Shown here piece by piece: positions 17,346-59,457 of a stretch of DNA of 64,000 bases. Position 1 is the stretch's first letter. Each line of letters opens with the position of its first letter. The notes under the pieces were generated by a model. It was not told the origin of the DNA. It saw only the letters and a program-made list of their open reading frames with translations, and did not search any database. A program made the position numbers and the translations under genes. The stretch is from a virus (Duplodnaviria > Caudoviricetes), in the IMG/VR virus record IMGVR_UViG_3300035180_001344, positions 1,095 to 65,094 of that record; one strand, written 5' to 3'.

Positions 17346-19994
17346 ATGTCTCTCACCACGTCCACGTCCACAGAGGATATCAAAGCTCGCTACACTACCC
17401 CGTTTGAAGACGGCTTCTCCGAAGAAGTGTGGGCTTCCACATACAAAGATCATACTGATAACAACGTAAATGACACAATGTTTCGCGTAGCAGCGGCCGC
17501 TGCTTCAATGGAAACAACACCTGAACTACAACAAGAATGGACTGAAAAGTTCTATGATCTGTTGAGTGAGTTCAAGGCAACATCTGGTGGCCGTATCTAC
17601 GCAAATGCTGGCACCAGCTGGGGTGGTACAACTCTAATGAATTGCTACGTTGGACCCCGTGGGAAGTACGACATTGACTCACTGGATGGTATTTTGGAAA
17701 CGCTTCGCCAGCAAGCACAAACGTTGAAATCAGAAGGTGGCTGGGGTGAGAACTTCTCATACATTCGTCCACGTGGGTCGTTCATTCACGGGATTGGTGT
17801 AGAGACGCCCGGTGCAGTTAAGTACATGGAGATGTTTGACAAATCATCGGAAATCATTACAGCTGGATCCGGAAAGAAGTCGCTAAACAAGAAGGCCAAG
17901 GGCAAGATTCGCAAGGGCGCAATGATGGGAGTAATGGATGTGTGGCATCCAGACATCATTGAGTTCATTACAGCAAAGCAGCAACCCGGTCGATTGACGA
18001 AGTTCAACATCTCTGTCAACTGCACGGATGACTTTATGAGCAAGGTGATTAGCGTTAAGAAACAAAAGGCTTTGCTTGACGATTGTGTTGTTCCAGGTGG
18101 GACTATTACACCAGAACGGCTTGAAGAATTGACGCGCCAAGTTGATGAACTGGATAAGTGGGAACTACGTTTCCCTGACACACAATTTGCTGGATACAAG
18201 TCTCTGTGGGACGGTGATATGAAGAAGTGGGAGGCGAACGGCCATCCTGTCAAGGTGTTCAACACTGTGTCTGCATCATGGTTGTGGAATTTGATCATGG
18301 AATCAACGTACAACCGTGCAGAGCCGGGTGTGTTGTTCTTGGACCGCGCCAACAAGTTTGGTCCACTGAATTACGCTGAAACAATTTTCGCTACGAATCC
18401 TTGTGGAGAACAAACATTGTCCCCAGGTAACGTTTGCAACTTAGGTTCGTTGAACCTCGTTCACTTCATCAACAAAGACCGTACAGGATTTGATCTACGT
18501 AAGGTTAAGAAATACACTCAATATCTTGTTCGTTTCCTCGATAACGTCAGCGACCTGTCATCAGCACCTCTGCCTGAATATGAATGGTCAATGAAGAACA
18601 AGCGCCGGATCGGGGTTGGCATTCTTGGTTGGGGATCTGCGCTGTATATGTTGAAGACGAAGTTTGGGTCTAACGATGCAGCTGGATTGCGTGAAAAGCT
18701 AATGCAAACGATCGCTCAAACAGCGTACGCATATTCAGTTGACCTGGCAGAAGAAAAGGGTATGTTCTCTGTCTGCGAACCAGAAAAGCACGCTGATGGA
18801 TTGTTCGTTCAAAACCTCGGCCTCTCATCACAAGTAATCGACAAGATGCGGAAGGTTGGTATTCGCAACAGCTCGCTGCTATCGATCCAGCCTACTGGCA
18901 ACACATCCATCTTTGCCAACGTCGTATCGGGCGGCCTTGAACCTGTGTTTATGCATGAATACGTTCGTACAGTAATTGTCAACGTAATGCCTGATCACAT
19001 CGCCAGTGTGACTCCAAAGTGGTACGAGGGAGAGTGGTACGAGACAGAAATGTTTAAGTTCTCAAAGGAAGGTGATGAGGAGATTCTTCGCGGTACTGAT
19101 GCCAATGGAACAGTATACAAGATTGACACCAACCGTGGTCTGACAAAAGAAGTATTGTGTGAGGACTTCGGTGTTCGGTTCATGAAGCGAATTGGTGAAT
19201 GGGATGCCTCGGCTGACTGGGCGGCAACGACTACTAGTATGTCTGTGCAAGATCACGTCAGTGACTTGACAGGCTTTGCGCGTTGGGTTGATAGCGCGAT
19301 GAGCAAGACGGTCAACGTACCAAACGACTATCCGTTCGCAGATTTTAGCGACATCTACCTCGATTCCTATAACTCGGGGTTTGTCAAGGGTGTGACGACT
19401 TACCGTTCAGGTACCATGACAACAGTGCTTGCAGCCAAGGACGAAAAGAATGCAACGGCGATGGATGAGGAAATCATTCTTGACGACGTTAAGCTCCCTG
19501 ATAGTTCGGCAGCAACATTGAAAACCCTGCGGGCCGAGGGCAAGAAGTGGTACTTGACAACAACGTGGAACGAACAACAAACACGTCCGTTTGCGTTATT
19601 TGTTCACACAAATAGCCATGAAAAAGGTGTGACAACCAGCGACGCCGTAGAAAAACTGATGGAGTTGGCAGTTAACAAGGGTATTCCTCAACGTCACATT
19701 GATGCAACGATGGAGAAAATCAGTGGTGACACTAATGCATCAAAAATTGCTCGAATGATTAGTTTGAGCTTGCGTCACGGTGTGTTGATCAAGAACATTG
19801 TTCTTGCGCTTGACCGTGTGCAGGATGTATTTGCTGGAACGTTCTTGTTCCAGATTCGCAAGTATCTGTCGACGTTCATTAAGGACGGAGATCCAGTTGA
19901 AGGATCAACGTGTGAGTCATGTGGATCTTCTCGCGTGATATACAGCGAAGGATGTCAGAAATGTGTAGATTGTGGTTCAAGTAAATGCGGATAA
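17346..19994 (+). CDS. nrdJ: ribonucleotide reductase, class II (B12-dependent)
   Basis: NCY, TNPCGEQ, CNLGS, QPTG, KGVTTYR; C-terminal domain with CxxC Zn ribbon; no beta subunit adjacent. Confidence 0.88.
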   Translation: MSLTTSTSTEDIKARYTTPFEDGFSEEVWASTYKDHTDNNVNDTMFRVAAAAASMETTPELQQEWTEKFYDLLSEFKATSGGRIYANAGTSWGGTTLMNCYVGPRGKYDIDSLDGILETLRQQAQTLKSEGGWGENFSYIRPRGSFIHGIGVETPGAVKYMEMFDKSSEIITAGSGKKSLNKKAKGKIRKGAMMGVMDVWHPDIIEFITAKQQPGRLTKFNISVNCTDDFMSKVISVKKQKALLDDCVVPGGTITPERLEELTRQVDELDKWELRFPDTQFAGYKSLWDGDMKKWEANGHPVKVFNTVSASWLWNLIMESTYNRAEPGVLFLDRANKFGPLNYAETIFATNPCGEQTLSPGNVCNLGSLNLVHFINKDRTGFDLRKVKKYTQYLVRFLDNVSDLSSAPLPEYEWSMKNKRRIGVGILGWGSALYMLKTKFGSNDAAGLREKLMQTIAQTAYAYSVDLAEEKGMFSVCEPEKHADGLFVQNLGLSSQVIDKMRKVGIRNSSLLSIQPTGNTSIFANVVSGGLEPVFMHEYVRTVIVNVMPDHIASVTPKWYEGEWYETEMFKFSKEGDEEILRGTDANGTVYKIDTNRGLTKEVLCEDFGVRFMKRIGEWDASADWAATTTSMSVQDHVSDLTGFARWVDSAMSKTVNVPNDYPFADFSDIYLDSYNSGFVKGVTTYRSGTMTTVLAAKDEKNATAMDEEIILDDVKLPDSSAATLKTLRAEGKKWYLTTTWNEQQTRPFALFVHTNSHEKGVTTSDAVEKLMELAVNKGIPQRHIDATMEKISGDTNASKIARMISLSLRHGVLIKNIVLALDRVQDVFAGTFLFQIRKYLSTFIKDGDPVEGSTCESCGSSRVIYSEGCQKCVDCGSSKCG

Positions 19995-28741: not shown

Positions 28742-28784
28742 ACGTAAGTCCTGTTGATTCACGTATTTATAAGATCAATAACGG

Positions 28785-28807
28785 AAAGGGGCGCCCGAAA
28801 GCGCCCC
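28785..28807 (-). terminator. terminator after tmRNA
   Basis: GGGGCGC-TTTCGG-GCGCCCC-TTT on minus strand. Confidence 0.75.
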
Positions 28808-29175
28808 GATCTTGGATGATTTGATGAGAAGGTTATCCTGACCTCCCGCCGTACAGGTTTTTAAGCTGCGAGGGCGTAAACGTTTTCGTTTGCGTTTATG
28901 TGTTTTGCTTGATTAACGGTCATCGCCTACCGTGTTGTCCACTTCAATACTCACCGCCCAATCGATAGCCTGGTCGCCCCCATCAAAAAGACTCTTATCC
29001 TGATCACGCCACCTTGGTGACAAACTGTAATTAAACAAGTTTAGCGGCGGTATGTAATCGTCCCACTGTTCCAATCAAAATCCTTTTGGTGGAGGCGGCG
29101 GGAATCGAACCCGCGTCTTGAACTCTTTCTATCTGCTTCTTTCTTCAAGATTGCTCTTAAAGCTTTCACAACAGT
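28808..29175 (-). ncRNA. ssrA: circularly permuted (two-piece) tmRNA
   Basis: T-arm/acceptor 3' end GCGGGTTCGATTCCCGCCGCCTCCACCA (ends 29087) lies upstream of the 5' acceptor strand GGGGGCG (28981); G3:U70 pair; tag ANENVYALAA* at 28893-28861. Outer ends approximate. Confidence 0.93.
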
Positions 29176-29183
29176 AATGGTAT

Positions 29184-41460: not shown

Positions 41461-42960
41461 TTAATCGTCCTTGTTCGGATCATACTTGAATTGTTCGATG
41501 ATTTCGCCCTTATCATCTACTGTTTTCATCAACACCGTGTACCCCCACAGAGCGCCCACGTGCCGCAGTGTTTTGATCGTCTCATCCTCGTCTAACATAT
41601 GTCGCTTCATAGATTGATGCTCCATTGTCATGGCACGTGTACCCCACACATCAACCTCCGTTACGTTGATGTACGGTAGTCGATTGTTCACATTTTGTTG
41701 TTCAGCCAGCTTTTCGCGGATCTGATGATATCCGTCGTCATTTTGAATTGCTTCAACCAGCATAGTTGGATTGTTGTCGTCGTCCAAAATATGGAAGAAT
41801 TGGAAATCTCTCATTACCTTTGGTGATAGGTACTGCAAAATGAAAGCCTCATCCTTGAAGTTAAAGGCGGCATACTTGCACTCAGCAAGCCAATCCGACT
41901 TGCCACACAGATTTGGGAACCACTTGCGGTCTTCATCTGTGGGATCCAAGCACATACGCTTAATGTCATTGAACATTGCAAATCCAAGTGCATATGGATT
42001 TATTGGTTGCATTGGATATTGCCTTACTACTCCCGTGTGGCTGTGCATAAACTCCAACATAAATCCATCAGTGACATGACCTCGTTCGTACATCTCCATC
42101 ATGATGTTATAGTGTGTGAAGGTGGCCCAGCCTTCATTCATAATCTGTGTCAACATTTGTGGATAGAAATATTGTGCGACTTTACGAACGATACGAAGAA
42201 TTTCCTTCTTCCACGCCTCCAAGTTCGGAGCGTGTTTTTCAATAAAGTACAACAAGTTTTCTTCCGGCTCCGCAGGAAACTTTGGATATTTTCCTGGTTC
42301 TGCTGGCACCTTGGTTAGAGGTATTGTACGCCACATGTCATTAAACGTTTCTTCTTCGTGTTGAATTCGATCCTTAACACGTTGTTTTGCTTTGTCTTTT
42401 GACAACTGAACTGGACGCTTGTATCGATCAATACCTTGATTTCGCAATGCGTGTGCATGATCAAGAACCTCTTCAACAGCTCGTTCACCGTACTTTTCTT
42501 CACATTCGTGTACGTAGTGTTTTGCGTATGCCAGGTAATCAATGATTGCCTCGGCGTCAGTCCATTGCTTAAAGTGCGTGTTATTCTTGAAAAACGAATT
42601 GTGTCCAAAGCACGCATGTGCTATTACCAGGCACTGCATGGCTATGGAGTTCTCTTCCATCAAATAGCTGATGCATGGATTGCTGTTGATCACAATTTCG
42701 TACGCCAACCCCATGTGGCCACGCTTGTATTGTTCAGATTCTGCAACAAATTGCCTACCAAAGGACCAATGTGAATAATACAGTGGCATTCCAACAGCAG
42801 CGTACGCATCAAGCATCTGTTCACTGGTGATGATTTCAATTTGATTTGGATAGTACTCTATCCCGTATACCTCTTCGGCAATCTGTCGAATCTTATCGTA
42901 TGCATCGTCAATATCTGCAAACGTCCAATCTTTACCAGAATCAAATTTAGCGCTTGTCAT
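41461..42960 (-). CDS. spoVR: SpoVR/YcgB family protein
   Basis: YPNQIEII, GLAYEIVINSNPCI, HACFGHNSFFKNN, MNEGWATF. Confidence 0.93.
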   Translation of the reverse strand: MTSAKFDSGKDWTFADIDDAYDKIRQIAEEVYGIEYYPNQIEIITSEQMLDAYAAVGMPLYYSHWSFGRQFVAESEQYKRGHMGLAYEIVINSNPCISYLMEENSIAMQCLVIAHACFGHNSFFKNNTHFKQWTDAEAIIDYLAYAKHYVHECEEKYGERAVEEVLDHAHALRNQGIDRYKRPVQLSKDKAKQRVKDRIQHEEETFNDMWRTIPLTKVPAEPGKYPKFPAEPEENLLYFIEKHAPNLEAWKKEILRIVRKVAQYFYPQMLTQIMNEGWATFTHYNIMMEMYERGHVTDGFMLEFMHSHTGVVRQYPMQPINPYALGFAMFNDIKRMCLDPTDEDRKWFPNLCGKSDWLAECKYAAFNFKDEAFILQYLSPKVMRDFQFFHILDDDNNPTMLVEAIQNDDGYHQIREKLAEQQNVNNRLPYINVTEVDVWGTRAMTMEHQSMKRHMLDEDETIKTLRHVGALWGYTVLMKTVDDKGEIIEQFKYDPNKDD

Positions 42961-44285
42961 GATTTTCTTTCAAATAACTTAATGAAAACAGGGTACACGC
43001 TTTCTTCACTTGTAATAACAGCGGCACTTAGATGTTGTTGGACTTCACTCATAGGTTTGAAAATAGACCAAAGAGAGTCATCATCGTCACTAAATGATAG
43101 CCTTTGTTCGTCATCGGGATTGATTTGAACATACGCATAGTATTGCAATATTGGCAACATCTTGGTAAGGACAAAATCCTTAACAATTTCATTGTCGTGT
43201 GGGAAGTTATCACCATCTGACGAATGAGCAAGGTAAATGTTCCACAACTCCGGCGAATAGTGCAGCATGATTTCATCATACGCTGCTTCCAGACCTCTTG
43301 ACGTTACAGTTCCGCCAGTCTCATGGCCGTAGTAAAAGTCTTGTTCAGTAACTACTTGGGCACGGGTATGGTATGTCACATAGACAATTTCAATATGCTC
43401 ATATTCTTGCATTAGAAACAGATACAACAGCAGATAAAACGTCTTTGCGAGTTCCTTTTTCCGCTCATCCATTGAACCAGACACATCCATCAGGCAAACC
43501 ATCACAGCTTGCACTTTTGGTACTTGTACCCTCGTCCAGTTGTTGAATTTCAAATCAATTGGGTCAATGAATGGAACTGCTTTGATTCGACGCTTCATTA
43601 CCTCAATTTGATGTTGAAGTTTTTCCAGTGCATCTACCTCAATTGAGACATCTTGGTTATTTGCCTTACGGTGAGCAATATCAACAAGAAGTTCTGCTTC
43701 TTTACGTTCCAGTTCTTTTAGTTTCTTACCCTTCAACGCACGAAGTCCAGAGCGCCTACCTACGGCTCCTCGCATTGACCGCATCACATTCAACATCGAC
43801 GGTGATCCATCAGACGTAAATCCATGACGTTGCATGACTTCTTCTGTCAGTACAGCGAGGTTTTCTTTAACAAGATCAGGCAGTGCACAATTGTCAAAGA
43901 AAATTTCAAGGAATTCTTCCTTGGTCAAGTGGAAGGTAAACTCATCTTCACCTTCTCCGTCTTCTGATCCCTTGGCGCCTCCTGGACCACTGCCACTGTT
44001 TGGTGGTCGTTTTAGCTTGTCACCAGGAACGAACTTATCATTACCAGGACGAACAATGTCGTTGATTCCTGTTTTATCGTGGTGGAAGTTGGGTTCATCA
44101 AGGTCGCGAACCGGAACTCTAACCTTTTTTCCCTTGGAACTTGCGAGGTCTTTCAAACCACCATCACGGACAATGTCTTTAACGCTGTCTTTGAGAATTC
44201 CCTTAACTCGCCCAATGAACTTACGACGATTTACAGAACTCTTGCCTTTGTCGTTTTTACGACGATCAATAATTACATGTGACAT
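42957..44285 (-). CDS. yeaH: YeaH/YhbH (DUF444, vWA-like) protein
   Basis: IDRR..KSSVNR, MDVSGSM, ETGGT, SDGDN. Confidence 0.93.
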   Translation of the reverse strand: MSHVIIDRRKNDKGKSSVNRRKFIGRVKGILKDSVKDIVRDGGLKDLASSKGKKVRVPVRDLDEPNFHHDKTGINDIVRPGNDKFVPGDKLKRPPNSGSGPGGAKGSEDGEGEDEFTFHLTKEEFLEIFFDNCALPDLVKENLAVLTEEVMQRHGFTSDGSPSMLNVMRSMRGAVGRRSGLRALKGKKLKELERKEAELLVDIAHRKANNQDVSIEVDALEKLQHQIEVMKRRIKAVPFIDPIDLKFNNWTRVQVPKVQAVMVCLMDVSGSMDERKKELAKTFYLLLYLFLMQEYEHIEIVYVTYHTRAQVVTEQDFYYGHETGGTVTSRGLEAAYDEIMLHYSPELWNIYLAHSSDGDNFPHDNEIVKDFVLTKMLPILQYYAYVQINPDDEQRLSFSDDDDSLWSIFKPMSEVQQHLSAAVITSEESVYPVFIKLFERKS

Positions 44286-44330
44286 TTAGTCGTCCTTCGA
44301 ACTGCGAGATTGGTCCAACACAATTGTTGA

Positions 44331-44606
44331 TTAGTGAAGATGCGTTCTTATGCCACTATCAAGTGCATCATTGCCCATTGCTTCATTGATTTCATCTTGT
44401 GTTGCAGGACGTACACCACCATCCTCACCTACTACTACCACAGAACTATGTTGGGCAGCCGCCTCCATTTGCAAATCAAATTGCGCATGAGCAAGTGCTT
44501 CACGTTCTGGCGTAGAGATTGTGCAATCAAAGCAGATGTAAGATCCACCAGGCCCGTACGGTCTGATGTCCTCTTTGTCCTGCTCACAATAGAAGCATTT
44601 TTTCAT
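44331..44606 (-). CDS. small Zn-finger protein
   Basis: CxxC...RPYGPGG..ICFDC. Confidence 0.7.
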   Translation of the reverse strand: MKKCFYCEQDKEDIRPYGPGGSYICFDCTISTPEREALAHAQFDLQMEAAAQHSSVVVVGEDGGVRPATQDEINEAMGNDALDSGIRTHLH

Positions 44607-44607
44607 A

Positions 44608-46557
44608 TCAATTGTGCTTTCTGTACCTCATATACCATTCCACCAACAGACGAACCTGCTTGTCGGTATATCCCTTTGACTTCATCCGCTGAACGAAATC
44701 ACTGTGCTTCGTTTCTTCATCAGCCGTCGCCTTCTTATTGAAGCTGATAACTGGCAGAAGTTCTTCCGTGTTGGCAAACATCTTCTTCTCAATTACCGCC
44801 CGCAGCTTTTCATAACTGGTCCACGAAGGATTCTTGCCAGCATTGTTGCGTGCAGCACGGAGAACAAAGTTGACGACTTCATTTCGAAAGTCTTTTGGAT
44901 TGCTGATCTTCGCTGGCTTTTCAACCTTTTCCAACTCTGCATTCAACGATTCGCGATCAAACATCTCGTTCGTGTCAGCATCCTTGTAGTCAATGTTCTG
45001 AATCCAAGCATCAGCGTACATGATGTATCGATCAAATACGTTTTGACCGTATTCACTGTACGATTCAAGGTATGCCTTTTGAATCTCGTCTGACAGGAAC
45101 TGTGCGTAGTTTGGAGCAATCGTTCCCTTAATGTACGAAATGTATTCCTCTTCAACGGCTTGTGGGAGACGCTCATTCATAACCTGATGTTCGAGAACGT
45201 ACATCAGGTGAACAGGATTGGCCGCAATTTCCGTACTGTCGTGGTTGAATGTCTTTGACAAGCACTTAAACGCAAATCGCGTTGATGTTCCGTCCATTCC
45301 TTCATCAACACCCGCCAAGTCGCGATACTCTTGGTACGACTTTGCTTGTGGATCCTTGTCTTTGAGATTCTTACCGTCATAGATTTCCAGTTTGGAAAAC
45401 AACGTTGAATTTTCTGGCTTGCCAAGGCGTGTGAGGACAGAGAATTGAGCCATCATTTCCAGTGTGCCTGGTGCCCGAACAGCACTTGACAAAGACGAAT
45501 GCTTCAACAGCTTTTCGTAAATTTTGACCTCTTCTGTCACTCGCAAGCAGTAAGGAACCTTGACAATGTACACACGGTCCAAGAATGCTTCATTGCGCTT
45601 GTTGTTGCGGAATTGTTCCCACTCTGATTCGTTTGAGTGAGCCATCACAATACCCTGGAACGGGAATGATGCGAGACCTTCCGTACCGTTGTAGTGTCCG
45701 TCTTGCGTACACATCAGCAGAGGGTTCAGCGTCTTGATGTTTGACTTGAACATTTCAGCATAGTCAACGATACCCTGCGTTGCAACGTTCAGCGCACCAC
45801 TGTAACTGTACGCATCAGGATCATCCTGGCTGAAATCTTCCAACTTACGAATGTCAACCTTACCAACCAACGAGCTGATGTCTTGGTTGTTTTCATCGCC
45901 TGGTTCCGCTTTGGCGATACCAGCGCGCGACAGTTGTGAAGGAAGCAACTTGACAACAGTAAACTGACGCAGATCACCGCCAAATTCTTGTAGTCGTTTT
46001 GTAGCCCACGGTGACATGATCGTTTTCAACGCAGAGGCTGGAATTCCAAACCGCTTTTCCAGCTTCGGACCGTCAGTGATTGGATCAAATAGGCCAAATG
46101 GGTGTTCGTATAGTGGGGAAACTTTGTCACCCGCCTTCAACACGTACATTGGAATGGATTCGAACAGTTGCTTGACGCGTTCTGCAAGTGAGGACTTGCC
46201 GCCGCCGACTGGGCCAAGCAGATACAGGATTTGCTTCTTTTCTTCAAGACCCTGTGCAGCGTGCTTAAAGTATGACACTGTATCGTCAATAGCCTTTTCC
46301 ATCCCGTAGAATTCAGCAAAGGTTGGGTAGTAACGAATCTTGCTGTTTTGAAAGATTCGGCTCAGTCGCGGATCTTTCGAGGTATCCAATTCCACTGGAT
46401 CACCAATTGCATCCAACATACGCTGTGGAGCAGTAGCATACATTTTTGGATTCGCCTTGCACTGTTCAAGATACTCAAACAGTGTCATTTCTACGCCCTG
46501 ACGAGCTGAAAATCTTGCCGTATAGTCACCAAAAATGTCGTCGTGTTCAAAACTCAT
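44608..46557 (-). CDS. prkA: PrkA/YeaG AAA+ ATPase / serine kinase
   Basis: LLGPVGGGKSS, EPGDENNQDIS, HSNESEW, EAFLDR. Confidence 0.95.
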   Translation of the reverse strand: MSFEHDDIFGDYTARFSARQGVEMTLFEYLEQCKANPKMYATAPQRMLDAIGDPVELDTSKDPRLSRIFQNSKIRYYPTFAEFYGMEKAIDDTVSYFKHAAQGLEEKKQILYLLGPVGGGKSSLAERVKQLFESIPMYVLKAGDKVSPLYEHPFGLFDPITDGPKLEKRFGIPASALKTIMSPWATKRLQEFGGDLRQFTVVKLLPSQLSRAGIAKAEPGDENNQDISSLVGKVDIRKLEDFSQDDPDAYSYSGALNVATQGIVDYAEMFKSNIKTLNPLLMCTQDGHYNGTEGLASFPFQGIVMAHSNESEWEQFRNNKRNEAFLDRVYIVKVPYCLRVTEEVKIYEKLLKHSSLSSAVRAPGTLEMMAQFSVLTRLGKPENSTLFSKLEIYDGKNLKDKDPQAKSYQEYRDLAGVDEGMDGTSTRFAFKCLSKTFNHDSTEIAANPVHLMYVLEHQVMNERLPQAVEEEYISYIKGTIAPNYAQFLSDEIQKAYLESYSEYGQNVFDRYIMYADAWIQNIDYKDADTNEMFDRESLNAELEKVEKPAKISNPKDFRNEVVNFVLRAARNNAGKNPSWTSYEKLRAVIEKKMFANTEELLPVISFNKKATADEETKHSDFVQRMKSKGYTDKQVRLLVEWYMRYRKHN

Positions 46558-48785: not shown

Positions 48786-49373
48786 CTAATTGAGCTTGAT
48801 CGGGTTGAGAAGTCGACTGTCTTTGGTTACCCGAGAGATCAGGAACTCCATTTGATCAGCAAGAATCGTACGATTCATCAGAATCAAGTATTCAGCCCTG
48901 TTTGGTGCATACGGCACGTACAGCAGCTTCATATCTGCTTCTTCTGGCGTCCGGTTGTCCTTGTACTTGTTACATCCACCACACGAAGATACAACGTTTG
49001 CCCAGGTGTCCTTACCACCACGAGAGCTTGGTTGGACGTGGTCACGCGTCAAATTATCAAGGCTGAACTCACCACCACAGTAAGCACAAATGTGCTGGTC
49101 ACGCCGAAACAGCGCTCTGTTGGTTAGTGTTGGAATTCGGAACAATCCTTTGTCACCAATTTCTCCCCTGACAGCAATGATCGTGTTTAGATCCATGGAC
49201 GATTGTTCACCCGTTACGCGGTTGTTACCACCGTAAATAGTGAAGTCCGAGCCACCCGCTGTCCACGCAATGAGATCCTTTGCCTTGTAATAGGCAGCAT
49301 CTTCATACGTCATCCAGCGGCATGGGTTGCCAGCGATGTCAAGTTGCAAAATTAGCGGGTGTTCTCTCGCCAT
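48786..49373 (-). CDS. HNH endonuclease
   Basis: RDQHICAYCG, TRDHVQP..GG..W.NVVSSCGGCN. Confidence 0.9.
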   Translation of the reverse strand: MAREHPLILQLDIAGNPCRWMTYEDAAYYKAKDLIAWTAGGSDFTIYGGNNRVTGEQSSMDLNTIIAVRGEIGDKGLFRIPTLTNRALFRRDQHICAYCGGEFSLDNLTRDHVQPSSRGGKDTWANVVSSCGGCNKYKDNRTPEEADMKLLYVPYAPNRAEYLILMNRTILADQMEFLISRVTKDSRLLNPIKLN

Positions 49374-49449
49374 AGTAAATTCTCCGTTTTGGTTATGTTA
49401 ACCATGTATTTATCGGGAAGACGGGCTGACTATCCAGCCCTTTTCCCTT

Positions 49450-49782
49450 TTAGACAACAGAAACAGCAGCGGGCGCGTCCTCTTTCATCAATTTGTAGCG
49501 CCTCAATGGCCGGCGCTTATCACCAATTAACGGTTGAGTACAAATTGCTGTATGACCAGTATCATTGTCAGGTTCGTGAAACATCTGATACTCAATATCG
49601 TTCTGTTCCAGATGATCTGCCGCTTTGTACAGATCATCTTCATTGGTGATGTCAATCAAAACAAGATGTGAATGAGGTCCGAAGCGGTGTCCTGCTTCAA
49701 GCGCCGCATGCGATGCTTGCACTATCTGTTGAGGCCCTGTAAGGTCTCGCCGGATGAACAAGTAGGTGTACGGCGTATTCAT
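49450..49782 (-). CDS. peptidyl-tRNA hydrolase II (Pth2)-like protein
   Basis: YLFIRRDL..Q.IVQASHA, FHEPD...TAIC..P, LRRYKLM pattern of the PTH2 fold. Confidence 0.78.
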   Translation of the reverse strand: MNTPYTYLFIRRDLTGPQQIVQASHAALEAGHRFGPHSHLVLIDITNEDDLYKAADHLEQNDIEYQMFHEPDNDTGHTAICTQPLIGDKRRPLRRYKLMKEDAPAAVSVV

Positions 49783-50114
49783 TGCAGCAGTGCAGTAAGT
49801 GTTGCCACTTGCTCATCCGTGATGATATCACCAAATGTCTTTTTGAAATCAGCTGGGTACCGCTTAATTGACCAACGCAGTGTTGCTTTGGCTTGTTCAA
49901 AAGACATCCATGGTTGGGCACCGTTTGCAATTTTGATTGGACTTGTGACTGGACTAAATCCACGATCAAGAGGCAAGCCTCGGATCATGTTGTACGTCAG
50001 AATGTCAGTAGGTGACAAACGGCGGTCTTTGGCACGTGTCCTGAAATAGGTACGGAAAGCTTGGAATTGTTCTCGTGTGAGAAGGTAGGAAGGGAAAGTG
50101 ATAGTTGTATTCAT
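49779..50114 (-). CDS. hypothetical protein, first gene of Pth2-like operon
   Basis: GGAG SD before MNTTITF; stop overlaps Pth2 start (ATGA). Confidence 0.75.
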   Translation of the reverse strand: MNTTITFPSYLLTREQFQAFRTYFRTRAKDRRLSPTDILTYNMIRGLPLDRGFSPVTSPIKIANGAQPWMSFEQAKATLRWSIKRYPADFKKTFGDIITDEQVATLTALLQ

Positions 50115-50236
50115 GTTTATCTCCAAAAGTCAAAAAGTTTACGTTGCATAAACGCGCAGAAAGCGTGACTTGGGATAAACGGTGGGCCGTTAGCGAAGGG
50201 CACCTACATCGAAGATTGGAACATGATTATTTCCTT
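50115..50236 (-). promoter_or_regulatory. amber-containing leader peptide and SD-sequestering stem
   Basis: AAGGAA SD; ATG 50224; MFQSSM-TAG-VPFANGPP...FWR-TAA (50117); arms 50166-50180 and 50115-50132 are complementary. Confidence 0.75.
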
Positions 50237-50270
50237 GGTTTTACTGATCCACTATTGAACCAGTGATGAG

Positions 50271-50299
50271 AGTATATATGATCGAGTCAATGATGTCAA
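50271..50299 (-). promoter_or_regulatory. sigma70-type promoter
   Basis: TTGACA-N17-TATACT. Confidence 0.85.
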
Positions 50300-50554: not shown

Positions 50555-51502
50555 TTAGTCCAACATTTCTCGAATTGATGCACCAGTTGCAACACGGCTA
50601 ATTGTTTCTGCAAGCAAGTTCGCCATAGACACCTGGCGAACCTTTTCACTCATCTCTTCTGGCAGAGGAATTGTATCTGTAACTACCAGCTGTTGCAGGT
50701 TTGAGTTATCAAGATTTACAGATGCGCTGCCTGATAATACGGCGTGGGATGCATATGATACAACGCGACGAGCTCCACCAACGTTAATCAATGCGTCAGC
50801 TGCTTTTCCCAACGTCCCAGCGGTATCAACCATATCATCAATCATCACACACGTACGATCGGTTACATCGCCAATAATATGCATTACCTCTGACACACCA
50901 GCTTTCGGTCGACGCTTGTCAACAATCGCCAGGTCCATGTCTTTTAGATTCTTTGCAACTGCACGTGCACGTGCCACACCACCAACGTCTGGTGAAACAA
51001 TGATTGGATTTTCATCCATCCATTTGTGATAAATGTCAGATACAAACAAGTTGGTTGCAGAGATGTTGTCAACGGGGATATGAAAGAATCCTTGGATCTG
51101 TGTAGCATGGAGATCAACAGTAATGACGTGATCAATCCCCACTGCTTCGATCATTGTTGCTGCTACCCGAGCAGAAATAGGTACACGAGAATAGCCGGGT
51201 CGGCGATCTTGTCGAGCGTATCCGAAATAAGGAATTACAGCAATGATGTCTTGTGCTGATGACCGACGAAGAGCATCAGCGATCAAAATCAACTCCATTA
51301 GATTGTCGTTTGCGGGTGCACATGTTGGTTGAATGATGAATGCCTTACATCCACGAACATTGTCTTTGATTTCAACACGAATTTCTCCGTCGCTAAATCG
51401 TTCAACGTCCATTCGTTCCAAGGGAAGATTCAACTTTGAAGCAATTTGTTGGGCGAGCTTGCGGTTTGCTGTTCCAGCAAACAATTTGATATCACCGATC
51501 AT
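50555..51502 (-). CDS. prs: ribose-phosphate pyrophosphokinase
   Basis: FSDGE, YFGYARQDRR, DLHATQIQGFF, SPDVGG, DDMVDTAGT. Confidence 0.95.
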   Translation of the reverse strand: MIGDIKLFAGTANRKLAQQIASKLNLPLERMDVERFSDGEIRVEIKDNVRGCKAFIIQPTCAPANDNLMELILIADALRRSSAQDIIAVIPYFGYARQDRRPGYSRVPISARVAATMIEAVGIDHVITVDLHATQIQGFFHIPVDNISATNLFVSDIYHKWMDENPIIVSPDVGGVARARAVAKNLKDMDLAIVDKRRPKAGVSEVMHIIGDVTDRTCVMIDDMVDTAGTLGKAADALINVGGARRVVSYASHAVLSGSASVNLDNSNLQQLVVTDTIPLPEEMSEKVRQVSMANLLAETISRVATGASIREMLD

Positions 51503-51707
51503 GCACATCTCCTGAGTGTAGGTATTTCCGTGAATTTACATATATGTATGTTCCACTCACCATACTAACTAACGCTGCGTAGGGGTGAAACAGAACAATA
51601 TCGAACGTGATCAACGACAGAATTGGAATGATACCCAGCCCTATCAAAATAATCAACCCCATCATTCGTTGAAATTTTACGTACTCTCGAATAACCCGTG
51701 TACTCAT
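51492..51707 (-). CDS. small membrane protein
   Basis: Two TM segments, AAGGA SD. Confidence 0.6.
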   Translation of the reverse strand: MSTRVIREYVKFQRMMGLIILIGLGIIPILSLITFDIVLFHPYAALVSMVSGTYIYVNSRKYLHSGDVHDR

Positions 51708-51847
51708 GCTAATGATCCTTACCCAAACACTCGCTGCCGTTATAAATTATTGTAAGTCAAACGCGCCGTAGTATCAACCAAATAAAGAAAAAGGGTAAAA
51801 GTAGATGGGGACTAAATACGTGACCTTATACCCAACAGGAGACCAAT

Positions 51848-52414
51848 ATGGCACTCACCAAACAAGATTTCGAAGCAGCCGCAGCAATTATCAACTGTGA
51901 ACCAGCAGCAGTACAAGCTGTTGCATCAGTGGAGACGCGTGGAGGTGGTTTTGATCCAGAAGGATTTCCAAAAACATTGTTTGAAGGTCATTGGTTTTAC
52001 CGTCTAACTAACGGAAAGTTTGCTACATCAAATCCAACCCTGTGTTATCCAAAGTGGGATCGTCAGTTTTATGGTAAGACGTGGCAAGAAGAAAAGGCTC
52101 GGTTGAATGCTGCAATTGAGTTGGATCGTAATGCAGCTATGCAATCTGCTTCGTGGGGAATGTTCCAGATTATGGGATTCAACCACGCAAAGTGTGGGTT
52201 TAAGACTGTACAACAATTTGTGACAGCAATGTGCAAGAGCGAAGGCTCACAACTTGCTGTGTTCTCACAATACATTGTCAATTCTGGGTTGGATGATGAG
52301 CTTCGTGACAAGCGTTGGGCGGACTTTGCACGCCTGTATAATGGACCTGAATATGCGCAAAATAAGTACGATGTCAAATTGGCTCAATCGTACGCAGCCG
52401 CAAAATCTGCATAA
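51848..52414 (+). CDS. N-acetylmuramidase (DUF3380-type) endolysin
   Basis: VETRGGGF, LFEGHWF, SWGMFQIMGFN, FARLYNGP; TAAATA upstream. Confidence 0.9.
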   Translation: MALTKQDFEAAAAIINCEPAAVQAVASVETRGGGFDPEGFPKTLFEGHWFYRLTNGKFATSNPTLCYPKWDRQFYGKTWQEEKARLNAAIELDRNAAMQSASWGMFQIMGFNHAKCGFKTVQQFVTAMCKSEGSQLAVFSQYIVNSGLDDELRDKRWADFARLYNGPEYAQNKYDVKLAQSYAAAKSA

Positions 52415-52471
52415 GTTGACATTGTTGTTGAGGTATAGTACGATTTCCTCTCATCCATACGGGGAAATCTA

Positions 52472-53293
52472 ATGCTTTTACGAATCATGTCTGATATTCA
52501 CTTGGAGTTCTCGGACTTCAAGATTCCTGACCTTGACACAGACCGTGAGACGGTACTGATCTTGGCGGGGGACATTGGTGTTGTTCATAAGGTTAGCAAC
52601 CTCAAAGAGCGGTATATTCCCTTCCTGTCAAGGGCAAACATTCAATTCCGCAAAGTAATTTTGATCATGGGCAACCATGAGCACTACGGTGGTTCATTCC
52701 GCCGGACCCGTGCCTTGCTGCAAGATGCAATAGGTCTTGCGATGTTGGAAAATGTCATGCTCCTTGAAAAAGAAACATATTTGGTTGACGATGTCGCTTT
52801 CATTGCAGCAACTCTGTGGACTGATTGTGATAAACATAGTCCGTTTGCGCATCAGTTGTTTTCAGGAATGAATGACAGCCGCGTGATCCGTACTGGTCCA
52901 AATGAAACACTGCCGTATGAACGCAAGTTCAGTGCAGAGGCTTCGTGGGTTGACCACATGCATGCAAGCAAGTTCATCTTCAAAGACATTGTGGCGCAGA
53001 AGGATCTTGGTCGTAAGACTGTGGTTGTGACGCATCACGGTCCAACAATGCAGTCGATCCACGAAGCATACCGTGGCAGCAATATGAACATGTTTTATGC
53101 GTCCGAGCTGACAAATCAGATCATGGATACGAATCCTGATCTGTGGATCCACGGTCATACTCACAAGCAGTTCAGCTACTTGGTTGACGATACGTTGGAG
53201 CATTGTCAAACTCGGGTAATTGCTAATCCTCGTGGCTATCACGGACATGAGGATACATCTGGCTTTGATCAAACGTTAGTTGTGGAGGTGTGA
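52472..53293 (+). CDS. metallophosphoesterase
   Basis: SDIHLE, AGD, GNHE, THH, HGHTH, NPRGY. Confidence 0.9.
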   Translation: MLLRIMSDIHLEFSDFKIPDLDTDRETVLILAGDIGVVHKVSNLKERYIPFLSRANIQFRKVILIMGNHEHYGGSFRRTRALLQDAIGLAMLENVMLLEKETYLVDDVAFIAATLWTDCDKHSPFAHQLFSGMNDSRVIRTGPNETLPYERKFSAEASWVDHMHASKFIFKDIVAQKDLGRKTVVVTHHGPTMQSIHEAYRGSNMNMFYASELTNQIMDTNPDLWIHGHTHKQFSYLVDDTLEHCQTRVIANPRGYHGHEDTSGFDQTLVVEV

Positions 53294-53718
53294 TGGGACA
53301 CTATGACGAAAACCGTAAGTTTGACGACGAACGGCGTGCGGCTGGAAAGAGCCACGCTGGGAGTGGGACTCCGTTTCAATACACACTAACATCGAAGATT
53401 CCAATGGACCCAAAAGAATCGAAAATCAAAAAGGTGAAATTTGAGGTACAAGTTCCAACAGAAGTGTACTCATACACCACACTACGTGGTTGGTCTGATG
53501 GACCAAAGTGGGTGTGTGATACAAAGGGTGCTTTTGACATGTCTCAACGAGAACCAAACATTGGTGTGGTTAACGTTGACATTGAAGGTGTTGCAGAGTT
53601 TATCAAAACGTACCCTCATCCTGTTGGAGCATTCTACGTGATTGCTGATCACAAGGAAGTTGTCAAGTTGATTATCGATAACCCGGAGCGAGATATTAGA
53701 CACCTGTTGATCGGATAA
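53290..53718 (+). CDS. hypothetical protein
   Basis: Overlap-coupled ORF. Confidence 0.65.
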   Translation: MMGHYDENRKFDDERRAAGKSHAGSGTPFQYTLTSKIPMDPKESKIKKVKFEVQVPTEVYSYTTLRGWSDGPKWVCDTKGAFDMSQREPNIGVVNVDIEGVAEFIKTYPHPVGAFYVIADHKEVVKLIIDNPERDIRHLLIG

Positions 53719-53721
53719 ATA

Positions 53722-54075
53722 CAAAATAGTCACCACAAGTAGTGGCTCGCTGAAACAATCAGCGTAATAACTAGAAACGTCAGGCGTGCAAGCCCTAACT
53801 GCCGCCGGAGTGGGAACAGAGACTGTGAATCCAGTCTAACGAGCCCGTGGTATGAAGCCCACAGAAGTAGACCAGCTTGGGAGCTATGCCAACTTTTCAC
53901 AAAACAAACATGTGTCGTTCATGTCGCGAGGTATATTCCAATCAACTGCGAAAAAGTGGGGAGGGGATTATTATTAAATCCCGATTTTCTGTAAGTGCTC
54001 CTGAACTAGGAGCTTGAAGTGAAACGAACGCTCCTAGTTCACCAACGGTATCGTTATGATGCCGCCATGGAACTG
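53722..54075 (+). ncRNA. unassigned structured non-coding element (ends and strand approximate)
   Basis: ORF-free, many hairpins including a 12-bp perfect stem (54002-54013/54030-54041); TAAATA at 53716-53721. Confidence 0.5.
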
Positions 54076-54162
54076 GGATGTTGGTTTCCTTTATGGGTTT
54101 GAGTACTATATACCTATATGATGGATAGACCGTCACATTTCACCCTTTGAAAGGATCTTTCA

Positions 54163-55194
54163 ATGTCTCACAAATACAAACTCCTCGTCTTTATTGGTCG
54201 GTTTCAACCTGTCCACATCGGTCACGTCCAAGTAATCCAAGCTGCATTGTCAAAAGCCGATAATGTTCTGGTTCTTGTTGGTAGTTCCAATCAACCACGA
54301 ACTGCAAAGAACCCATGGACATTTGCTGAGAGATCTGGAATGATCTCTATGTCTTTGGAACAACAAGAAGCAAAACGGGTTGACATGATTCCCCTTCGAG
54401 ACCAGGCATACAACGATCAAAAGTGGGCTGTCTCTGTTCAGCAACATGTAGAAAATCATCTCGCTGCACTTGGACTTGATCCAAAGAGCAATGTGGGGAT
54501 CATCGGTCACAGCAAAGATGAGAGCTCGTACTACCTCAAAATGTTCCCTCAATGGGATCTGGTAGAGCACGAAATGAACGAAGCAGTCAGTGCTACCGAC
54601 CTACGCCGTGTGATGTTTGAAGAGATGAGCCTGAAATTTTTGACAGGCGTCGTCCCTGCACCTGTCGTCCAGGGCATTACAGCATTCAAGCAAACGCCAG
54701 AATATGCTGGGTTAAAGCGTGAATACGACATGATCAAGAAATACAAAAAGTCATGGGAAGTTGCTCCATATCCAGTGACATTTGTTGCTTCTGACGCAAT
54801 CGTAATTCAATCCGGTCATATTTTGCTGATTGAGCGAGGAGCAGCTCCCGGTGAAGGCCTGTGGGCTCTCCCTGGTGGGTTCTTGAATCAAAATGAGTAC
54901 ATTGAGGACGGAATGCTGCGTGAGTTGCGCGAGGAGACGAAGATCAAAGTCCCCATGCCAGTACTTCGTGGTTCAATTAAAGCATCTCGTGTATTTGACC
55001 GGCCAGACCGGGATCCACGTGGTCGCATGCTTTCCCACGCATATTTGATTGAACTTCCGCCAGGTGAACTTCCTCTAATCAAGGGATCTGATGATGCTCG
55101 CAAGGCGAGATGGGTTCCGATTGCTGACATTGACGAATCGCAAATGTACGCAGATCACTTCCATATCATTAACTACTTTCTTGGTAGTCGTTGA
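54163..55194 (+). CDS. nadM: bifunctional NMN adenylyltransferase / ADP-ribose pyrophosphatase (NadM-Nudix)
   Basis: GRFQPVHIGH, KNPW, SAT; Nudix box PGGF..E....RELREET, GSDDA. Confidence 0.93.
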   Translation: MSHKYKLLVFIGRFQPVHIGHVQVIQAALSKADNVLVLVGSSNQPRTAKNPWTFAERSGMISMSLEQQEAKRVDMIPLRDQAYNDQKWAVSVQQHVENHLAALGLDPKSNVGIIGHSKDESSYYLKMFPQWDLVEHEMNEAVSATDLRRVMFEEMSLKFLTGVVPAPVVQGITAFKQTPEYAGLKREYDMIKKYKKSWEVAPYPVTFVASDAIVIQSGHILLIERGAAPGEGLWALPGGFLNQNEYIEDGMLRELREETKIKVPMPVLRGSIKASRVFDRPDRDPRGRMLSHAYLIELPPGELPLIKGSDDARKARWVPIADIDESQMYADHFHIINYFLGSR

Positions 55195-59381: not shown

Positions 59382-59457
59382 GCGCTCGTAGCTTAGCGGT
59401 CCAAAGCTGGGAACTCTAAATTCTTGATCGTGGGTTCGAATCCCACCGGGCGCACCA
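59382..59457 (+). tRNA. amber suppressor tRNA (anticodon CUA)
   Basis: 76-nt cloverleaf with CCA; GGGAA-CTCTAAA-TTCTT puts CTA at 59416-59418 after U33. Confidence 0.85.

Follow-up and report, generated by a model that had tools for sequence, protein, structure and literature searches.

The locus and its leader

The window, i.e., the whole stretch of 64,000 nucleotides analysed here, covers positions 1,095 to 65,094 of the 65,094-base virus record IMGVR_UViG_3300035180_001344 and is a fragment of a phage genome. The leader lies on its minus strand and opens with a sigma70-type promoter, TTGACA-N17-TATACT (50271 to 50299, 11 of 12 matches), in which the -35 box TTGACA (50299-50294) and the -10 box TATACT (50276-50271) are separated by a spacer of 17 nt. 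This promoter is the best of five sites between 48500 and 51000, a region whose shuffles give a mean of 4.0 sites, and a similar site stands upstream of 10 of the 17 leaders compared below, this one included. It is followed by a Shine-Dalgarno (SD) sequence at 50230 to 50237 and by an upstream open reading frame (uORF, 50204 to 50224) that begins with an ATG at 50224, encodes MFQSSM and stops at an amber codon (TAG, 50206-50204), to which we refer as the gate. Past the TAG the frame stays open for 28 codons (50117 to 50203) until a TAA (50119-50117), and this readthrough extension carries a Gly-Pro-Pro motif (50180 to 50188), with its first proline seven codons beyond the UAG, which is a predicted pause site. 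At the final base of the second proline codon starts an anti-SD arm (50166 to 50180), 23 nt from the UAG, which folding pairs with a 3' arm (50115 to 50132) holding the GGAG SD of the next gene, orf1. This layout had been put forward in the original prediction, and every one of its minus-strand coordinates was borne out.

The stem formed by the two arms (50180-50166 / 50132-50115) comprises 15 base pairs interrupted by two bulges, one of 2 nt and one of 1 nt, has an energy of -14.1 kcal/mol and is present in the MFE fold. Taken alone it is marginal (z -1.97, 7 of 200 shuffles equally good), and the occlusion of the SD is equalled by 7 of 100 shuffles; what lifts the layout above chance is the conservation of the UAG and of an in-frame Pro-Pro among homologous leaders. 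Between 49000 and 51000, Rfam returned no cis-regulatory match, just four snoRNA matches far under their gathering scores.

orf1 (49779 to 50114, minus strand, ATG at 50114) encodes 111 aa and shares an ATGA overlap (49782-49779), present as foreseen, with the gene of a 110-aa Pth2-fold protein (49450 to 49782, minus strand). A GC-rich hairpin past the latter gene (49423 to 49440) looks like a terminator in the scan on the plus strand only. The HNH-domain gene directly downstream (48786-49373) ends in TAG and may therefore be extended when a suppressor is active; six of the 77 long ORFs of this genome end in that codon. The window also encodes three tRNAs, one of them with a CUA anticodon, and a tmRNA (28770-29179, permuted type according to ARAGORN, tag ANENVYALAA) that may belong to a shared translation-rescue programme. 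The segments 42957-46557 and 50555-55194 carry genes for a paired PrkA kinase and DUF444 protein (YeaG/YeaH-like), a PRPP synthetase, a metallophosphoesterase and a cytidylyltransferase-Nudix fusion, which we read as host-like stress and NAD-salvage genes.

orf1 and the Pth2-fold protein

The product of orf1, the direct target of the leader, is modelled as an all-helical phage protein (pLDDT 83.7) with 37 homologs. It falls into no Pfam family, gave no usable match in the ESM Atlas and reached at best a Z of 3.8 in the PDB, a result that would indicate neither a new fold nor the absence of one; in BFVD it matches a protein of phage fHe-Yen9-04 with a TM of 0.70. Single-protein searches at default thresholds returned no viral loci and no GenBank phages, two deep alignments were too divergent to find loci, and homologs of the type found in phage CBB were recovered by relaxed tblastn and a profile search.

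The label "Pth2-like" given to the downstream gene stands firmly by fold and weakly by sequence. The model (pLDDT 90.4) aligns with archaeal and human Pth2 at a Foldseek probability of 1.00 and a TM of about 0.7, with 13-18% identity, whereas the sequence scores 16.4 bits against Pfam PTH2 (PF01981), under the gathering cut-off of 23; the corresponding domain of a fusion protein in phage XacN1 clears that cut-off at 25.3 bits. Catalysis by archaeal Pth2 relies on Lys, Asp and Thr residues, the lysine being that of the "GK" motif. The R-x-D-L and Q-x-x-H-A motifs of Pth2 align with the phage protein, but in the phage family the GK lysine is replaced by Gln and D-A-G by E-P-D, and the Thr region falls outside the aligned stretch. 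The gene product is hence best described as a putative hydrolase. The family numbers 2381 representatives at E <= 0.001 and is mostly viral among its placed members, bacterial members occurring in 2 of 301 genomes of one phylum.

In the genomes of CBB, XbC2 and fHe-Yen9-03, some 22 kb separate orf1 from the hydrolase gene; orf1 still has its leader there, while the hydrolase gene carries an in-frame UAG of its own. The leader had been proposed to control the hydrolase operon; judged by this arrangement, it travels with orf1 and belongs to it.

Conservation of the leader

All orf1 homologs with available upstream DNA were compared, which gave 17 leaders, exact or near duplicates being left out, as were the copies in BF and GAP32, which read like that of CBB. 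The original prediction had staked its refutation on the conservation of the TAG, the GPP and the stem in homologs; the TAG and a Pro-Pro pair are found in 17 of 17, spacing included: each leader has a uORF of 2-13 codons terminated by TAG and, in frame, a Pro-Pro whose first residue lies 5-8 codons past the last TAG. An SD-like word precedes 16 of the 17 uORFs. In all the sequence examined, leaders included, 63 of 9407 TAG triplets (0.67%) show the same Pro-Pro arrangement, a background against which the 17 leaders, because they are related to one another, do not count as independent trials. Seven of them (L053, L030, L141 and L143-L146) were inspected after the rule had been fixed, and all fit. 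The proline codons vary at their third position, and the residues between TAG and Pro-Pro are unconserved. In arrest peptides of the RAPP/RAGP type such as ApdA, ApdP and SecM, an arginine stands two residues before the prolines. Here this arginine is not conserved, with RAPP occurring in L003 only, and neither is the (R/N)GPP motif that had been expected; what is retained is X-Pro-Pro, where X is Gly in ten leaders, Asp in four, Ala in two and Ile in one. A strict DNA pattern written for the leader matched only the L016 contig.

Covariation in the anti-SD stem had been named as a further check, and it holds for most homologs, in which compensatory changes are present, but in five of the 17 (L036 and L143-L146) the stem over the SD is weak or missing. 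When the arm behind Pro-Pro was paired with the 24 nt that precede orf1, cognate duplexes averaged -12.7 kcal/mol vs -7.1 for non-cognate ones, with 0 of 20000 permutations equally good; the cognate partner was unbeaten in ten leaders, beaten once in two and poor in the same five. Among the first 11 leaders, 0-11 of 100 shuffles were as occluded as the natural sequence for eight and 36-60 for three. In most folds the arm begins at the end of the second proline codon, a position at which a ribosome pausing on Pro-Pro would cover it. A comparison of SD accessibility between the ON and OFF states is in part predetermined, since the arm is removed to represent ON, and in L143 the orf1 SD gains no accessibility in that state (0.53 vs 0.59).

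The readthrough frame ends in several ways. In eight leaders it stops at or beside the orf1 start, through a TGA overlapping the orf1 ATG in seven and a TAA 2 nt before it in the window; in two it stops 16 and 39 nt upstream, in four it stops right behind Pro-Pro, 62-69 nt upstream, and in three it continues in frame into orf1. The end of the frame being so variable, the invariant is Pro-Pro and not coupling, so that translation to a coupled final stop, suggested earlier as a route to the ON state, is not general. In L007, an amber leader stands directly ahead of the hydrolase gene without Pro-Pro and without an SD stem. Altogether, the comparison of these sequences shows selection on the UAG specifically, on a Pro-Pro at fixed distance and, in most leaders, on a cognate anti-SD stem, and the leader is real, conserved and apparently undescribed.

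A wider amber gate

Seventy-seven loci with a Pth2-like domain were grouped into 59 clusters. In 37 of them the domain is preceded, in frame, by an ATG, one to four codons and a TAG, with TAA found at that place in one cluster and TGA in none; among 417 other long ORFs of the same loci, taken as a control, the corresponding counts were 12 TAG, 16 TAA and 4 TGA, and several of these 12 look like further gated genes. A purine after TAG favours suppression, and the base after the TAG is a purine in 36 of the 37 directly gated clusters. The remaining 22 clusters include ten in which the gene stands behind an amber leader, one with a TAG at codon 17 (L141), three mycobacteriophages in which GTG-TAG-GTG closely follows a promoter-like site, one TAG lacking a clear start (L046), three contigs too short to judge, one TAA with a frameshifted match (L066), one weak match in a Lak phage, and the two ungated clusters of phages RaK2 and Hallingskeid. 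Judged from sequence comparison, the leader is one form of a wider amber gate, a single UAG by which many large phages of otherwise standard code appear to hold a few tRNA-related genes off.

A tree of the Pth2-like domain was built from 56 rows of 108 columns, without L027, L044, L046, L066 and L135, with L048 and L052 in addition and with L051 in truncated form. Many of its forks are unresolved; it spreads the direct and the leader type of gate over several lineages and joins the ungated RaK2 and Hallingskeid as long-branch sisters (100/100). The gate also reaches a third gene. An HD-like domain, so named from our reading of an H-D motif and matching only phrog_14850, which has no assigned function, forms a single fusion protein with the Pth2-like domain in XacN1, Xoo-sp13 and CM1, and the XacN1 fusion gene opens with ATG-AAG-TAG, in frame and upstream of the annotated start. 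In RsoM2USA the HD-like gene (phrog_14850; L009:2397-2975) stands alone and begins, behind an SD, with Met-Lys-Ser-amber. Since orf1, the hydrolase gene and the HD-like gene are gated separately, the gate follows each gene of the module. The fusion genes of Xoo-sp13 and XacN1 have a further ATG, in frame and four codons past the TAG, that could bypass the gate.

In mycobacteriophage Bxz1, which stands for about 200 mycobacteriophage records, ATG-TAG-GTG lies six bases past a -10-like hexamer, an arrangement that suggests a leaderless start-stop; mycobacterial gates are ambiguous, the GTG that follows the TAG being a possible start codon in its own right. The Bxz1 annotation begins the gene, gp154, after the TAG. 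Elsewhere, the Pth2-like gene is uncalled in the annotations of RsoM2USA and fHe-Yen9-03 and annotated as truncated in ME3, CBB and Arash.

Several further candidates were noticed. Bxz1 has a strong SD and Met-Phe-amber (ATG-TTT-TAG) ahead of gp153, in another frame (L169:521-560), possibly another amber leader. Candidate amber-gated genes at L020:2616-2990, L061:4012-4450, L060:1668-2050 and L047:2263 onward include an unassigned ORF immediately ahead of the Pth2-like gene, a cupin-like gene (phrog_4786) in which Pro-Pro follows the TAG at a distance of four codons, and a second Pth2-like start running into an unrelated ORF. A bacterial genome assembly (G076; L141:830-1560) brings together a CUA tRNA, a double-amber leader, Pro-Pro, a stem, orf1 and a TAG-bearing Pth2-like gene. 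In the genome of the window, a possible second gated gene at 19963 was rejected: what looked like a gate falls within the last part of the preceding gene, and the ORF starts from an SD and an ATG of its own. In the 65-kb record, itself a fragment, the long ORFs read in code 11 and the search for another gated gene found none.

The CUA tRNA

The window encodes a tRNA with a CUA anticodon on its plus strand (59382 to 59457), labelled "Pyl" by ARAGORN, which we propose as the trans-acting activator on the strength of its co-occurrence with gated genes. Only ARAGORN-confirmed tRNAs were counted, because a loose CUA pattern proved non-specific, a control pattern matching equally often. On this count a CUA tRNA is present in 13 of 16 directly gated GenBank genomes (ME3, RsoM2USA, CBB, Xoo-sp13, Arash, XacN1, fHe-Yen9-03, CM1, XbC2, pT24, LR756511, LR756501 and LR745206); LR756504 is ambiguous, and LR756500 and LR756502 are unconfirmed by a pattern search of whose matches a part was read. 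It is also present in four of four mycobacteriophages and in four of four IMG/VR records at least 90% complete, with none in six fragmentary records. The ungated RaK2 has nine tRNA matches, none of them CUA; Hallingskeid has nine as well, of which the eight read include no CUA, and gave no pattern match. Because these two phages are sisters, the joint absence of tRNA and gate counts as a single event. The tRNA often lies 0.1-3 kb from a gated gene, and the gated genes often sit amid tRNA clusters. RF1 failure and the phage CUA tRNA had both been suggested as the input to the switch, and this co-occurrence favours the tRNA over RF1 failure.

True tRNA-Pyl has a non-canonical structure and PylRS as its partner, and the phage CUA tRNAs appear to differ from it in the D- and T-loops. 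Those seen here have an ordinary GG in the D-loop and GTTCRA in the T-loop, and "Pyl" is simply the ARAGORN label for the anticodon. In the Salmonella phage Arash, an annotated tRNA-Phe about 1 kb from the gated gene (L012:2810-2884) has a CUA anticodon according to ARAGORN, and in Myrna and Phabba the CUA tRNAs adjoining the gene overlap features annotated as Ser and Arg. In ME3 (L008:998-1071), L058 and L059, a C replaces the usual U before the anticodon, which could lower suppression efficiency.

A model of the gate and its alternatives

We propose that UAG serves as a private regulatory codon of the phage. The sigma70-type promoter would produce an mRNA in which the orf1 SD is locked in the stem. 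A ribosome starting on the uORF would normally be released by RF1 at the UAG, before its footprint reaches the stem, and the operon would be OFF; a ribosome covers roughly 12-15 nt downstream, and because the 23 nt between UAG and arm exceed this coverage, termination would leave the stem closed. Once present and charged, the phage CUA tRNA would compete with RF1 at the UAG, and a ribosome that reads through would slow down at X-Pro-Pro 5-8 codons further on, cover the anti-SD arm and free the orf1 SD, the coupled Pth2-fold gene being translated after orf1. Relatives would show the same dependence in a simpler form, through a UAG placed directly in the gene, at codon 2-5, and orf1, the Pth2-like protein and the HD-like protein would make up a small regulon of the phage's own amber suppressor tRNA. 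Pro-Pro pauses are normally relieved by EF-P. Formation of the Pro-Pro peptide bond is slow, and stalling at XPPZ is documented with Asp or Ala before the prolines (PMC4176338); Gly-Pro-Pro, the commonest form in the leaders, is not listed among the strong stallers in the accessible text of that work. Readthrough, pausing, stem opening, timing and enzyme activity are all steps that we infer. That expression of orf1 and of the Pth2-like gene depends on amber readthrough seems to us very probable; the full model, suppressor and pause together, we consider probable.

The purpose of the gate is the least certain part of the model. Most likely, the gated set is a module for tRNA recycling or tRNA clean-up, switched on once the phage tRNA pool works: since the gated genes often lie amid tRNA clusters, the CUA tRNA is favoured as the reporter of a working pool. 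Such tRNA-recycling proteins could clear peptidyl-tRNA or reverse tRNA acetylation, an activity described for bacterial Pth on the product of TacT in the accessible part of PMC9241777. In its broadest form, toward which we lean only slightly, the proposal is that UAG and a CUA tRNA of the phage's own form a dedicated signalling channel in large phages with the standard code, of lineages that infect Proteobacteria, Bacteroidetes and Mycobacterium, in which the tRNA reports a mature and charged pool against RF1 and the regulon processes tRNA, the leader of the window acting as a two-input relay gate that combines readthrough with a slow Pro-Pro.

One may wonder whether the signal is not rather RF1 itself. 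As in prfB, a constitutive CUA tRNA would set the sensitivity, a fall in RF1 through host defence or trapped release factors would be the signal, and the output would be a substitute peptide-release enzyme. UAG is the stop read by RF1 alone. A gate specific to UAG, an output with the Pth2 fold and a tmRNA encoded in the genome all fit this reading; yet such a sensor does not by itself explain why a dedicated CUA tRNA is so often found beside the gated gene, and Pth2 enzymes are known to act on released peptidyl-tRNA and not as codon-reading release factors. We regard this reading as possible but rather unlikely; it makes use of the same codon and is compatible with the main model. We are somewhat more doubtful of a gate that is real but in which Pro-Pro opens no stem, passing ribosomes simply unwinding it and re-initiating, or producing an in-frame fusion, while the CC-rich codons are retained for RNA pairing or for peptidyl-tRNA drop-off. 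The eight leaders that end at or beside the orf1 start, the three in-frame fusions and the folds in which the proline codons themselves pair near the SD (L017, L036 and L144-L146) speak for it. Against it, Pro-Pro is always in frame with the TAG while its third positions vary, and in the four leaders that stop straight after Pro-Pro coupling is impossible.

The leakiness of the UAG might also merely set a constant low level of potentially harmful proteins. Two TAGs occur in four of the 17 leaders, and leader and hydrolase gene are both gated in L001, L002, L004 and L141, so that output would be very low there; but a weak SD or promoter would be a cheaper route to the same end, strong promoters and SDs are conserved, and the stop is nearly always TAG, which makes a fixed damper improbable. 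As for pseudogenes, sequencing errors or genome-wide recoding of TAG, the cluster L066 has a TAA at the gate and an out-of-frame match, and Lak phages bearing CUA tRNAs are reported as TAG-recoded in the accessible text of 10.1101/2021.08.26.457843. Nevertheless, a single stop recurs at the same N-terminal place in divergent lineages and cultured phages with an intact domain behind it, and the genome of the window gives 77 long ORFs in the standard code; we hold this reading to be largely refuted already and give it very little credence.

Relation to known systems and significance

In attenuators such as those of ermC and secM, a leader ORF carries a pause site before an anti-SD arm, and the paused ribosome frees the SD. 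The present leader shares their layout, i.e., a leader ORF with its own SD, an SD-sequestering stem and a predicted pause motif in a fitting position, but the proposed pause site lies past an in-frame amber stop and the input would be readthrough instead of an antibiotic, a metabolite or secretion; it also differs from the RAPP/RAGP peptides in that the arginine is not conserved. In the recoded crAss-like, Lak and Agate phages, a phage suppressor tRNA has likewise been proposed to time stop-bearing genes (10.1101/2021.08.26.457843); as far as the accessible text of that study goes, those phages recode whole late-gene regions, whereas the phages considered here keep the standard code and have a single UAG at the outset of a few genes or in a dedicated leader, and that text mentions no hydrolase. 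In prfB, which encodes RF2, an early in-frame stop also makes a termination-related gene depend on competition at that stop (PMC12421855, accessible part), yet it does so by a UGA and a +1 frameshift, where we propose a UAG, in-frame readthrough, a dedicated tRNA and a product that is no class I release factor. The accessible part of PMC10732093 describes a comparable use of the rare UUA codon in Streptomyces, where this codon and its tRNA control a group of genes, in part by way of a uORF ahead of adpA, but there a sense codon is read by a host tRNA, and here a stop codon would be read by a phage tRNA and relayed through Pro-Pro and the anti-SD arm. We view the leader as a probable combination of a translational attenuator with suppressor-timed expression, working on a single amber input in a genome of standard code.

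The original prediction knew of no regulator with such logic, and in the literature searched we too found none and no description of the amber gate, for which supplementary tables of phage or uORF surveys might hold a prior mention; gating of Pth2 or Pth is absent from the accessible text of Burroughs and Aravind 2019 (PMC6514570) and of PMC7918605. In the accessible part of PMC5852040, the authors of the XacN1 genome counted 18 amber stops among 592 proteins and stated that the targets of its amber suppressor were not identifiable. The gate offers a testable answer to a question thus already in print, namely the role of amber suppressor tRNAs in standard-code jumbo phages, and, if true, it would account for the amber suppressor and "tRNA-Pyl" genes that stand as orphans in jumbo phages and in cluster C mycobacteriophages. 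It is of a kind that escapes annotation. Finally, it points to a small step lying between the standard code and full recoding, and it would supply a compact natural switch for sensing readthrough.
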